Shown: one piece after another, positions 38,960 through 42,934 of the stretch
Layout: each line of letters opens with the position of its first letter
Numbering within the stretch: position 1 is the first letter of the stretch
Assembly: GCA_963769425.1 (NCBI GenBank)
Contig: CAVYLP010000003.1
Coordinates: forward strand, 288,001-352,000
From: Candidatus Bathyarchaeota archaeon
GTDB taxonomy: Archaea > Thermoproteota > Bathyarchaeia > TCS64
DNA: 64,000 nt
Reading direction: 5' to 3'
Notes under the pieces: generated by a model
What the model saw: the letters and a program-made list of their open reading frames with translations, nothing else
Told to the model about the DNA's origin: nothing
Databases searched by the model: none
Program-made: the position numbers and the translations under genes

Positions 38960-39352
38960 ATGGGAATGGAGGAGAAGGAGAAGAAGATCGGCTTCATAAT
39001 CGACGCGCTGGAGCAGCACATACCCCTGCTAATCCACAAGATAATCGACGAGTTCTACTCACCAGAGTCGGCGGGCAAGATCGGGAAGGGCCTGGCGGAG
39101 TTCTACAAGGCTCTCCGCGACGGAGGCGTTCCCGAAGGCGCAGCGGTGGAGATGGTGAAGGACTACGCCTCGAACCTGACCTTTAAGGGAATGGGGCACA
39201 TGTATCGCCCAATGTCCCCAATGGGTGGGATGATGGGGGGTCACATGATGGGTGGTCCCATGGGTATGAATCCCATGATGATGAAGAAGTACATGAAGAA
39301 GATGTGGCATGAGGGTAAAGAGGAAGAGCCAGAGGAAGAAGGAGAAGCATAA
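38960..39352 (+). CDS. Hypothetical protein with Met/Gly-rich low-complexity tail
   Basis: GKGLAEFYKALRDGGVPE helical core; MGGMMGGHMMGGPMGM; GGTGA SD. Confidence 0.75.
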   Translation: MGMEEKEKKIGFIIDALEQHIPLLIHKIIDEFYSPESAGKIGKGLAEFYKALRDGGVPEGAAVEMVKDYASNLTFKGMGHMYRPMSPMGGMMGGHMMGGPMGMNPMMMKKYMKKMWHEGKEEEPEEEGEA

Positions 39353-39487
39353 TCCAAACCCTCAACGATCTATTTTTTAGAAACAATTCACTCGAAAAAT
39401 TCTCCAAGGGAAAATCACGACTTTACGCCTCGCATGCTATTGTGGTCTGCCGGCGGGTGCTGGAGTACTGCAAGCCCACGACGCGCG

Positions 39488-40751
39488 CTGCCTTGTCCCT
39501 AAATTGATATCCAAAACAAGACCCCAACCAAACACCCCACAGAACCCACTCATAAACCAAAAACCACTACAGAAAAACCTCCCCCAGCGAACAAAACACC
39601 AAACCACAGCCCAACAAACAAGAACACAAGCAGGAAACAACCTAGGAACCCCACTCACCACTAGACCACACTAGCCTCACACGTTGAAGAACGTCGGAGA
39701 CACAGCCTTCTCCGGCCGACCCAGACACTCAGCGGCCTCCCTCACCAGCACGTGACAGAGAAGACTCAGCAACGCATACACCGACACATTTGATAAACGC
39801 CTCACGTTATTCACCGTCAAGCCATACTGTGTCTTCAGGTAGCTGAACACCGACTCCACGAGAGGCCTCTTATGATACTCCCCAACCAACTCGGCGGGAC
39901 CGTGAGTTCTGAACCTCCTATCCACCCTCAACACACCCTCACCCCTCTCCCTCGACATGTAGGGTATAGCCGAAGCCCCGACCATGGCTCTCAGCGCCTT
40001 ACCACTATACTGGCTGTCCGCCACCAGGCTCCGCAGCCGAGCCCCAACCCTACCCAGAACACTACGGGTCCTCTCCACAAGAGTCGGTGCGTGTTTCTTC
40101 TCGTTGTCGTTAGCCGGAGCCAGTAAGGTGGCGAGGGGCAGCATGGTTCTGTGGTCCACAGCTACGTGGAGCTTGTACCCTAGATCGTAGCCTCTTCCGT
40201 TCCTCCCCACAAGCGCGTCCGGGTCTGAGTACGCGACTCGGCTGTCGTCGGGATGTCTTATGCTCCTAGCCTTGATGAAGCTCGCGTCCAGGAGCGCGTC
40301 TACCTCGGTGGCTCTGCTCCGCCTCAGCAACTTGATGACCTTCTCCTCGATGATCAGCTGAAGCGTCTCCGCTCCGACTCGTTTTGTGAAGCGGCTGATG
40401 ACTGACCTGGGGTAGCCTCTCTCATTCTTCTTTATTAGGCAGAGTCTCCTGAGGCGCCGGTCGACGTCCAGGATCCGGGTGAGCTCCCGGAGGCTGCGGA
40501 TGCCCTTCAACCTCATGATGAGTAGGGCTCTGAAGATGCCGAGTGGGTTCCTCGGCTTCCTGCCGGGTCCGGTGGTGTGGTAGCAGCCGATGAGCTGCTG
40601 CTGGGCAATGCTTAAGTCGACGTTTCTGAAGAGTGTTTCAAGGGTCTCGTGTTCGTCCTGTCCTATGGATTGGAACTCCTCTGGTTCCCGCCATGGGTGA
40701 CGAGACCCTTACTGTCAAGATAAGTTTATCTCTAATTTAGGGACAGGGCAG
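39488..40751 (-). mobile_element. DDE insertion sequence (IS5/IS1182-like), 18-bp TIRs, 7-bp TSD ACGCGCG
   Basis: TIRs CTGCCYTGTCCCTAAATT at 39488-39505 and 40734-40751; ACGCGCG at 39481-39487 and again on the right once the IS110 is removed. Confidence 0.9.
39677..40694 (-). CDS. DDE transposase (DDE_Tnp_1-like)
   Basis: LLDASFI, GYKLH, VADSQY, RPLVESVFSYLK; frame open to ~40708 but the ATG near 40694 is out of frame. Confidence 0.85.
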
Positions 40752-40794
40752 ACGGTATGAGAAACGTTTTCAGGAATAGACCGTGAGGGTGTCG

Positions 40795-40923
40795 CGGGTG
40801 GCCTAGGCCCGCCGCGCGCTTGGTCCCGATGAGACCCCTAGGGCAGACTGGGCCAGACCCGAGCGGCTACCCGACTGGTCCGAGGAGAGACCCGATAGGA
40901 GCGTGCCGCCCGCAGGCCACCCG
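40795..40923 (+). ncRNA. Putative bridge/seek RNA of the IS110 element
   Basis: 10-bp basal stem (40795-40804/40914-40923) enclosing two internal-loop hairpins whose loops match target and donor flanks. Confidence 0.8.
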
Positions 40924-40934
40924 AGGTGACACCC

Positions 40935-42011
40935 GTGAAATACGTTGGAATAGACGTCCATAAAAAGATGTGTCAGGCAGCCGTCCTCGACGAGGACGGG
41001 ACCCTACTCGATGAACAGCGATTCCCCAACGACCCCGAGGGAATCGAGGAGTTCGCCGGAAAGCTAACCACCTTCCGCGTCGAGATCAGAGCGGTGGTTG
41101 AGTCAACTGGGAACCTCTGGATCCAGATCCATGACAGGCTCGAGACACACGGATTCGACGTGGCCCTATCAAACCCATCAAAGACAAGGCTCATCGCCGA
41201 GGCGAAGGTGAAGACCGACAAGGTCGACGCCAGGACCCTCGCGGGGCTGCTCAGAGCAGACATGCTGCCGACCTGCTACGTGCCCGGGGAGGAGCTCCGG
41301 AGCCGACGTGAGCTCCTGAGGCACCGGCTGAATCTGGTTAAGGTCCGCACCGCTGTCAGGAACAGGATCCATGGGCTGCTCGACAAGCATGGCCTCAGGA
41401 TGCCGGAGGTGACCCACTTCAGCAAGGGCAACGTGGAGTGGCTGAAGGGGCTCAGCCTCGGCTTCATGGATGACGCCATACTGCGCAGCGACCTCGCGCT
41501 CCTCGAGACGGTGGACACTCAGGTCAATGTGATCGAGGAGAAGATCGCTGTTCTGGCTGCTGAGGATCCTAGGGTGCGGCTGCTGATGACGATGACTGGC
41601 GTCGGCTACTTCACCGCGATGATGGTGGTCTCGGAGGTCGGGGACATCGGTCGCTTCCGCGGTGAGAAGGAGTTCGCGTCGTGGATGGGGTTGGCTCCGT
41701 CGGTGCGTCAGTCGGGGGAGAAGACGAGGATGGGTGGTGTCTCTGGTCCCGGTAACAAGAGGCTGCAGTGGGCGTTGGTGGAGTCGGCTCAGACCGCGGT
41801 CAGGCACGATGCTCGGCTCGGTGGATTGTATGAGAGGCTGTCTAGGAGGAAGGGATCGGGGTGCGCTGTAGTGGCTGTTGCGCATGAGATGGCTCGGATT
41901 ATGTATTTCATGTTGGTGAGGGGTGAGGCTTATCGGGGTGAGGATAGGGGGTTGACGGAGAGAAAGCTTAAGAACCTGGGTAAGAGAGCGTTTGATGGCC
42001 TGCGGAACTGA
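40935..42011 (+). CDS. IS110-family DEDD recombinase/transposase
   Basis: GIDVHK, VESTG, KTDKVDA (DEDD); GLAPSVRQSG catalytic Ser; GAGGTGA SD before GTG 40935. Confidence 0.95.
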   Translation: MKYVGIDVHKKMCQAAVLDEDGTLLDEQRFPNDPEGIEEFAGKLTTFRVEIRAVVESTGNLWIQIHDRLETHGFDVALSNPSKTRLIAEAKVKTDKVDARTLAGLLRADMLPTCYVPGEELRSRRELLRHRLNLVKVRTAVRNRIHGLLDKHGLRMPEVTHFSKGNVEWLKGLSLGFMDDAILRSDLALLETVDTQVNVIEEKIAVLAAEDPRVRLLMTMTGVGYFTAMMVVSEVGDIGRFRGEKEFASWMGLAPSVRQSGEKTRMGGVSGPGNKRLQWALVESAQTAVRHDARLGGLYERLSRRKGSGCAVVAVAHEMARIMYFMLVRGEAYRGEDRGLTERKLKNLGKRAFDGLRN

Positions 42012-42250
42012 GTGGGTGCTGCCCGGGCACCGTGTGCTCTGAAAACGTTCTCATAGGAGCGCGCGAAGAACACGGGCATTATGAGAATAATCCGGAGCAT
42101 GAGGTTGAGACGAGGCAACTGATGAATAAACTGATTGCTATGCCGGCTTCGGATTTATTCGAAATCACAACCAAGTGACTTATTGGCAATTCTAAGTCAA
42201 ATAAGTAATTCGAATTCGAACGTTTTAATGAGATCGATGCACGTGAGCAC

Positions 42251-42934
42251 TCAAGTTGAAGCGCGCTCAACTCTAAGGATGGATGCGAGGAGGTTCTGAC
42301 ATCGTTCTGTGTTGAAGAAGTTGCATGTGCATTGGTGTGCAAGTTCAATTGAGGCCTCCAGTATGGTGAGGTGTCCCGTTCTCACCTCGCGTGTCATGTG
42401 GGCGACCAGGTATGGGGAGACCATGTGGTGGCCGCACATGGAGGTTATCTCGAGGATGCTTGTGTCCGGGAGTAGCTCTAGTCGTCCGTGGGTCCCAGCC
42501 GACATGTTGACGGTGTGTGGTTCGATCCCGGCTGCCTCGCAGGCTGACCTGACACTTCCGAATAATCCGCTGACGACGACGCTTATCCCAAGCTCAGCCT
42601 CCTTAAGCTCTGCGACGACGGCGTCCACATCCTTCTCGTCGGAGTAGACTGCGCTTCCCCATTTGATGTCTCTGAGGTCTCCGATCTCCACGAGTGTGCT
42701 GTACGGTAGCTTGCCCGAGTTGCGGGTTTCCTCCCAGCCTCTGACGTATCTGTATCGTGTCGTCTTGTCTGCCTCCATTCTTCTGCAGGATAGGCAGACT
42801 GGGTTGTGTGCGGCTAGTATCTTCATGTAGCGCTCGTGTTTTCTCGGGTCGATGAGGCGGGTGTCAGTGTTGAATACAATCCAGTCGTGCAGGAGGGACT
42901 CCGCTGTGCCCAGTCGGTGGTTGCTGTGGGTCAT
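42251..42934 (-). CDS. Hypothetical Cys-motif protein, partner of the adjacent 4Fe-4S protein
   Basis: MTHSNHR, GISVVVSGL, SMCGH, CTCNFFN; start overlaps the upstream stop. Confidence 0.75.
   Translation of the reverse strand: MTHSNHRLGTAESLLHDWIVFNTDTRLIDPRKHERYMKILAAHNPVCLSCRRMEADKTTRYRYVRGWEETRNSGKLPYSTLVEIGDLRDIKWGSAVYSDEKDVDAVVAELKEAELGISVVVSGLFGSVRSACEAAGIEPHTVNMSAGTHGRLELLPDTSILEITSMCGHHMVSPYLVAHMTREVRTGHLTILEASIELAHQCTCNFFNTERCQNLLASILRVERAST

Follow-up and report, generated by a model that had tools for sequence, protein, structure and literature searches.

Insertion sequences (IS) of the IS1111 type have subterminal inverted repeats and usually a non-coding region downstream of the transposase gene, with a few, for example ISMtsp17, carrying it upstream (Siddiquee et al. 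2024, PMC11187229). In the RNA of these elements the match to the top strand lies 5' of the match to the bottom strand, the reverse of the order in the IS110-type element ISEc21, which targets transposase genes of the IS3 family (PMC11187229). In IS621, the 5' sides of the two loops pair with the bottom strand (8-9 nt) and the 3' sides with the top strand (4-7 nt), and every one of these pairings takes in the CT core (Durrant et al. 2024, PMC11208160). Once the strands have been exchanged, two bases that follow the 3'-side guides of IS621 pair with the other DNA, which is known as the handshake (Hiraizumi et al. 2024, PMC11208158). IS110-type recombinases also exist in archaea, with 662 reported in one survey. 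We found no paper on bridge or seek RNAs of Bathyarchaeia, or on archaeal IS110-type elements that target IS ends, in a search that lay outside the supplements of Durrant et al. 2024 and Siddiquee et al. 2024, which possibly list archaeal elements. Here we analyse an element of the IS110/IS1111 family, with a DEDD transposase, that adjoins the end of an IS5-like DDE insertion sequence (the host) in a 64,000-nucleotide stretch of DNA (the window; C3:288001-352000) from the 6-contig genome of a Candidatus Bathyarchaeota archaeon (GCA_963769425.1).

From the window and the relatives of the element, we conclude with a probability of roughly 0.87 that positions 40752-42057 are an intact IS110/IS1111-family insertion sequence of Bathyarchaeia, whose transposase is probably guided by RNA and aimed at the tip of the host together with its CG-rich flank. 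A first-pass annotation of this DNA had already proposed an RNA-guided IS110 element here, and every string it listed is found where it was placed, including CGCGCG at 40813-18 and TACC at 40868-71. The family assignment is borne out by the transposase, which contains PF01548 (1.1e-29, residues 7-154) and PF02371 (2.2e-24, residues 218-302) and scores 270 bits with the model NF033542, 'IS110 family RNA-guided transposase', against a cut-off of 140. The protein is similar to the solved ISCro4 (5.8e-18) and IS621 (4e-15), with the GIDV, ES/AT, KTDxVDA and SG motifs aligned, and the GL-P----SG motif is present as GLAPSVRQSG at residue 255. Two traits of IS110 elements are seen at the ends, namely the absence of a duplication of the element's own and a short core at both junctions, which is AG in the window. 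The traits of IS1111 are seen in part: a 17-bp subterminal repeat, TATGAGAA(A)CGTTTTCA, lies at 40756-72 with its complement at 42039-55 and is kept in the relatives, and the guide order is that of IS1111, but the long non-coding region is upstream of the gene (174 nt, 40752-40925) and not downstream (46 nt, 42012-42057). On these features the element appears IS1111-like in guide order and subterminal inverted repeats, with a predicted RNA upstream of the transposase.

Relatives were collected from related genomes, of which 30 of 101 gave matches, and from a metagenome scan, in which 206 of 219 candidates encode a relative and the best 80 of the 206 were retained. A scan for the left-end motif gave 111 matches, with left and right ends, and after removal of duplicates the set comprised 63 distinct elements, each with its 5' non-coding region and flanks, from genomes and metagenomes of Bathyarchaeia. 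All 18 related loci with a named source are metagenome-assembled genomes (MAGs) of Bathyarchaeia or Bathyarchaeota, in agreement with the archaeal setting proposed earlier.

The loops of the non-coding region, as a predicted RNA, match target and donor on both strands, as in IS110 elements. In the window, AGGGCAGAC occurs at 40840-48 and again at 40745-53, and ATAGGAGCG at 40895-903 and again at 42053-61. Across the relatives, the guides covary with target and donor, which upholds the two-loop region of the first-pass annotation and answers the check that it had proposed on homologs. The left target matches the guide of its own element in 3.98 of 5 bases on average (perfectly in 29 of 63), against 2.15 for non-self guides, and the right target matches the reverse complement of its own 5'-side guide in 5.29 of 6 bases, against 4.31 (51 right ends); none of 10000 permutations reached either value. 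Most right targets are CGCGCG, and the informative cases are five other guide classes, which agree with their flanks in 8/8, 8/8, 8/8, 7/8 (6/8 in one of three members) and 7/8 positions. On the donor side, the 3' guide begins with the seven bases of right end plus core in 50 of 53 elements, including the variants ATAGGAG, ATAGAAG and ATGGAAG. The bases after the 3'-side guides match the non-cognate DNA, as in the handshake: the last two bases of the target guide equal the first two of the element in 56 of 63 (AC/AC in 50, AA/AA in 6), and the donor guide ends in the first two bases of the target in 42 of 53. A diverged clade (...TAAG/AA and ...GTAG/AT, with the slash at the junction) has other targets, again matching its own guides. 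On a FastTree phylogeny of 52 full-length transposases, the guide class has switched at least 22 times, and of seven pairs that are phylogenetically independent, about five show a flank that follows the guide and none a flank that opposes it.

On its left side, the target consists of the inverted-repeat tip of another IS or of a miniature inverted-repeat transposable element (MITE), and on its right side of a flank of the (CG)n type; an IS end and such a flank had both been proposed before. Among the 63 left flanks, 27 carry a GGGACAAGCCAG-type tip and 15 a TCTAAACAGCCTAG-type tip, two variants of the same IS/MITE inverted repeat, and 21 have other sequence, several of these being degenerate forms of the first two types. 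The expectation that copies abut this terminal inverted repeat with a CG core holds, as to the tip, for 42 of 63 elements, and the core is AG in all 63 flanks. Both tip types share a subterminal ...ACCATTT...AATTT context. A DDE homologue stands just upstream of the element in 13 loci, with its N-terminus near the element in nine and its C-terminus in four; since both orientations occur, both ends of the host are used. Other hosts are MITE-like elements of 170-490 bp or short remnants. An inverted partner of the host tip was found within 1.5 kb upstream in 9 of 63 loci including the window, some of these matches being weak (3 mismatches) and that of L143 adjoining a flank without a host-type tip. 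In the window genome, only two host tips have AGGGCAG, and both are occupied; the tips with the single mismatch AAGGCAG are all empty. At locus L113, AG and CGCGCG come after the right end, and next to them lies the inverted tip of a further host element, an arrangement in which two host copies share one CG site with the DEDD element between them. Locus L081 has two DEDD left ends in opposite orientation within 2.3 kb.

The model examined for the RNA consists of a basal stem and two hairpins, in each of which an internal loop separates the outer stem from a GGTC/GACC inner stem, as drawn in the first-pass annotation. This architecture is kept in the 63 relatives, with 98.5% of the alignment cells paired; shifting the partner by 1-3 columns lowers this to 31-48%. 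The basal stem has eight conserved pairs and is longer in the window. The mean identity of the aligned regions is 75%, and the variable patches are two places in hairpin 1 and the terminal loops. For hairpin 1, RNAalifold offers an alternative in which TTGGTCCA pairs with TGGGCCAG; we prefer the internal-loop model because it is parallel to hairpin 2 and because the inner stem of the target loop in L093 shows a compensatory change from GGTC/GACC to GATC/GATC. The structure is backed by conservation more than by covariation.

The mechanism that best accounts for these matches would be as follows. The 5' non-coding region most likely gives rise to an RNA of about 150 nt that guides the DEDD transposase. 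The donor loop of this RNA would read the joined ends of the excised element, with TACC..CT on the 5' side and ATAGG-AG-CG on the 3' side, and recombination would take place at the shared AG core. Left target and core together are the terminal seven bases of the inverted repeat in an IS5-like IS or its MITE relatives, and the right target is the CGCGC(G) that is always beside the host element. The two bases after each 3'-side guide match the other DNA partner, AC being the start of the element and CG the start of the target. Because the left target is the host tip and the right target the CG flank of the host, this address exists only at the ends of host copies, and the DEDD element sits on these copies as a parasite of a parasite. 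The anatomy, the family, the covariation and the many independent insertions are seen in the sequences themselves; by homology with the characterized members, we infer that the guides are read as RNA rather than as DNA, that a circle is the intermediate and that the element is active.

Several observations weigh against this interpretation. As to the RNA, the stability of the single-sequence fold equals that of shuffles (z = -0.30), a scan of 39300-42300 against Rfam with E up to 1 gave no match, none of the listed sequencing runs is on record as RNA, and both-sided changes occur in four pairs only (18 cells), so that the structural covariation is thin. The contigs of four public DNA runs contained neither the circle junction nor an empty site, nor another useful joint. 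As to the guides, 12 of the 63 right ends were unusable for the test of the right target, the right flanks of L105 and L130 mismatch their own guides, the left match covers only 1-2 of 5 bases in 6 of 63 elements, and L075, L097, L102 and L120 combine the guide of one tip class with the flank of the other. An exact left guide match with core, followed by 5/6 of the right target, is present in the window genome (G000) at C6 near 46783 (minus strand), yet it is unoccupied. The FastTree phylogeny is poorly resolved, with 22 of 49 forks open, and the sign tests on the seven independent pairs miss 0.05 (median p 0.06 and 0.125). Finally, the two host copies of the window genome that adjoin a DEDD element share 96% identity over the final 230 bp.

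Recognition of the host inverted repeat by the transposase protein alone, with the matches of the non-coding region as by-products, would be compatible with the fact that no RNA was observed, and the 42 targets within one IS/MITE family could also be read by a DNA-binding protein. We nevertheless regard it as very unlikely. The variable patches of a non-coding region that is otherwise 75% identical are exactly the two guide positions, and the guides change with the flanks, including the five classes of right flank. Several of the covarying classes of left flank (...TAAG, ...GTAG) are unrelated to the host repeat. In addition, the matching family model is named for RNA guidance, and experiments have shown RNA dependence for IS621, ISEc11 and ISEc21.

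The exact register of the junctions can be read in two ways. The first-pass annotation had placed a CG core at the junctions, with the element at 40755-42059 inside a 7-bp duplication, ACGCGCG, made by the host. Deleting 40755-42061 does leave a perfect ACGCGCG on both sides of the host, and the main clade has CG after the right end and before GTATG. Deleting 40752-42059, however, restores CGCGCG equally well; the deletion arithmetic is not unique, and the comparative data favour the second register. AG precedes the element in 63 of 63 relatives, is found at the matching guide position in 62 of 63, and follows the right-end ...CATAGG regardless of the bases that come next. CG is not kept in the same way: L039, L041 and L042 have T, C or A after ...GGAGC, and the left junction there reads GAC-A-GGTATG. 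The dinucleotide after the left AG changes from AC to AA together with the last two bases of the guide in six elements of the diverged clade, as expected of bases that belong to the element and not to the target.

Unoccupied tips agree with the AG register. A loose scan of the genome for host tips, with two mismatches allowed, gave 204 matches that are mostly due to chance, from which 19 with an A/T-rich subterminal box were chosen by eye, a subjective step; two of these are occupied and 17 are not. The 17 unoccupied tips run into CGCGC (11 of 17) or similar sequence and never into AC. A tighter scan required CGCG after the tip, and it cannot alone show what follows the tips. Other host copies also lack the 7-bp repeat. 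Because AG is invariant, AC/AA covaries with the guide and the unoccupied tips lack AC, we place the core at AG, the element at 40752-42057 and the start of the right target at 42060, and give the CG register very little credence. The circle junction that the AG core predicts is ...CTCATAGG-AG-ACGGTATGAG..., one base off the ATAGGAG-CG-GTATGAG predicted earlier; a junction sequenced as ...CATAGGAG-AC-GGTATG... would conflict with a CG core. In one public contig, a right end with AG and CGCGCG is joined directly to sequence whose alignment starts at 41414, within the transposase gene, seemingly a nested or truncated copy in a relative.

The CG-rich half of the address can be traced to the target of the host. 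The right flank is the last ~38 codons of an open reading frame (ORF; window 42062-42178), whose homologue at L158 (G012:C17:22624-22739) is 79% identical over 116 nt. When the left flank (39437-39487) is connected to the right one through a single CGCGCG, the frame stays open and shows the ...EEH... motif of this homologue, from which it follows that (CG)3 is derived from the target; the earlier proposal that the address arises only after insertion of the host is thereby supported. Host tips have N-GCGC-G as the flank on the far side and C-GCGC-N on the near side, which fits a duplication either of 4 bp, GCGC, with a host end one base longer, or of 6 bp, CGCGCG. The host interrupts the 3' end of a small ORF, the rest of which appears missing or degenerate upstream of ~39355. 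The 45 bases to the left of the host (39437-39482) have matches of 83-85% at single places in G002, G007, G011 and G012 and no further copy in the window genome, in which the flanks of the two-element pair do not occur as repeats either. Among the relatives of the genus, the left and right flanks were never found on one contig, as they would be in an empty allele; in this search only the right flank had a homologue, that in G012:C17. Truncated host fragments in the window genome (G000) are bounded by (CG)n at the break, with GCGCGCG before the C4 fragment (C4:251990-252000) and CGCGCGC after the C2 fragment (C2:120275-120290); deletions or nested insertions of the host family at (CG)n sites may be favoured.

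A second copy of the DEDD element in the window genome (C4:252651-253671) is 98.9% identical, truncated at the 3' end, and abuts the same host tip. The host fragment beside it has 72-88% identity per 50-column window over 40121-40520, and the two insertions are likely, if not proven, to be independent. That the two-element pairing arose only once and spread by duplication or recombination of the composite, as the 96% identity of the last 230 bp of the host against 72-88% in the rest might suggest, is scarcely credible, because 47 of 49 right flanks are distinct and thus indicate many separate insertions, the hosts range from full DDE elements to MITE-like elements and short remnants, the DDE gene stands in both orientations relative to the DEDD element, and two tip variants each come with matching guides.

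The RNA-guided, AG-core reading could be extended to an obligate parasite of one Bathyarchaeia IS5-like IS/MITE family, with an arms race of guide versus tip, a split host base and a promoter supplied by the host. We consider this combination rather unlikely. The host repeat tip does exist in at least two variants (...GCCAG, ...CCTAG), between which the guides switch repeatedly. Under such an arms race, insertion may split the last base of the host from its repeat, and the AATTTA box of the host, 12-17 bases from the junction, may act as an archaeal TATA-type promoter for guide RNA and transposase. If so, the target chosen by the DEDD element would also supply its expression. In bacteria, expression is driven by a promoter formed at the circle junction. 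L090 likewise has a left guide of one of the two tip classes and the other class alongside. In this locus and in the four mentioned above, the mismatch between guide and flank class could reflect insertion that tolerates mismatches, or exchange of the guide by recombination after insertion.

The host itself has 18-bp inverted repeats with one mismatch, CTGCC(T/C)TGTCCCTAAATT, and a transposase on the minus strand with the domain PF01609 (DDE_Tnp_1, 9.1e-19), and this domain and the terminal inverted repeats are both features of IS5 members. All NCBIfam IS models remained under their cut-offs, the best IS5 model, NF033581, with 68.9 bits against 140 and the IS1182 model with 90.5 bits against 270; since no curated model passed, we call the host only IS5-like. 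Four more full or partial copies occur elsewhere in the genome. In homologues of its transposase, the alignment begins at residue 1 or 15 of the open frame. ATG, GTG and TTG are all absent upstream of the first canonical start at 40516 (window 40516-40705, minus strand). The only nearby ATG (40694) is in a different frame that stops after 18 codons. The same arrangement without a start is found in other host copies of the genome, which suggests a non-canonical start or a programmed frameshift. The coordinates of all features are given in Table 1.

Table 1. Features of the DEDD element, its predicted RNA and its host, in window positions.
Feature	Coordinates	Strand	Basis or remark
IS110/IS1111-family DEDD element, ACGGTATG...CTCATAGG	40752..42057	+	sequence and alignment of relatives
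Core AG, left junction (last two bases of host inverted repeat)	40750..40751	+	
Core AG, right junction	42058..42059	+	
Left subterminal inverted repeat, TATGAGAAACGTTTTCA	40756..40772	+	conserved in alignment of relatives
Right subterminal inverted repeat, CTGAAAACGTTCTCATA	42039..42055	+	
DEDD transposase gene, 361 aa, GTG start	40926..42011	+	
Predicted bridge/seek RNA body; basal stem 40787-40803 with 40914-40933, over the GTG start codon	40787..40933	+	
Target-binding loop (predicted); outer stem 40806-10 with 40850-54, inner stem 40822-25 with 40833-36	40806..40854	+	
5'-side target guide CGCGCG+CT, reverse complement of core AG and right target; pairs with top strand	40813..40820	+	
3'-side target guide AGGGC+AG+AC (last five bases of host tip, core, first two bases of element)	40840..40848	+	
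Donor-binding loop (predicted); outer stem 40863-67 with 40905-09, inner stem 40877-80 with 40889-92	40863..40909	+	
5'-side donor guide TACC..CT, opposite GGTA of left end (40754-57) and core	40868..40876	+	partial covariation
3'-side donor guide ATAGG+AG+CG (right end, core, first two bases of right target)	40895..40903	+	
Host, IS5-like DDE insertion sequence, 1264 bp	39488..40751	-	PF01609 and sequence read
Host terminal inverted repeats	39488-39505 and 40734-40751		part of the 1264-bp host
Open frame of host DDE transposase, 343 codons	39677..40705	-	first canonical start only at 40516
Left CGCGCG copy beside host; target-derived duplication, 4 to 6 bp	39482..39487	.	
Right CGCGCG copy, right target; pairs with 5'-side target-loop guide	42060..42065	.	

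The first-pass annotation overrated the novelty of the locus, as RNA guidance, natural reprogramming and IS1111/IS110 members that target transposons had already been published (PMC11187229). The element is a new archaeal member of this group, and the concept, published in 2024, is unchanged. Its value lies elsewhere. By sequence logic, the bridge/seek-RNA mechanism of IS110/IS1111 elements extends to an uncultured class of archaea, and one lineage provides 63 natural sets of guide, target and donor, including handshake positions and the repeated switches of guide class. The combination of mirrored guide order and an RNA gene upstream has been noted before but not studied, and the split address illustrates neatly how one mobile element lives on another. 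To builders of tools, the lineage offers thermally and phylogenetically distant pairs of recombinase and RNA with known cognate sites.

Compared with the seekRNA elements of the IS1111 group, namely ISEc11, ISPa11 and ISKpn4, the present element shares the DEDD transposase, the subterminal inverted repeats with short asymmetric extensions, the GL-P----SG motif, the top-strand match 5' of the bottom-strand match and natural reprogramming (PMC11187229). It differs from most of them in the non-coding region upstream of the transposase gene and in its archaeal setting; past the repeats it has extensions of 4 and 2 bases in addition to a 2-base core, whereas those reported for IS1111 have 7 (or 6) and 3, and the transposase has 361 aa, against 330-350 (PMC11187229). 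With IS621 and ISCro4, it shares target and donor internal loops with one guide per DNA strand, core-pairing bases at the 3' end of the guides, the core in all four predicted pairings, the 2-base handshake after the 3'-side guide, and an RNA upstream of the gene. The core AG is CT on the other strand, which is the core of IS621. Unlike in IS621, the strand order of the guides is reversed, which mirrors the reading of target and donor with respect to the gene, and the element matches the loop logic of IS621 when the DNA is viewed from the other strand. The similarity to the IS621 and ISCro4 proteins is remote (E 4e-15 to 6e-18), and the present element is known from sequence alone. IS4321 and IS5075 reportedly target the inverted repeats of the Tn21 family. 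Like ISEc21, the Bathyarchaeia element has a fixed target inside another transposable element (PMC11187229). Unlike IS4321/IS5075 and ISEc21, it would use a split address, composed of the host-repeat tip and core on the left and a flank generated or selected by the host on the right; insertions are seen at both host ends and at MITE derivatives, its guides follow two variants of the tip, and it belongs to an archaeon.

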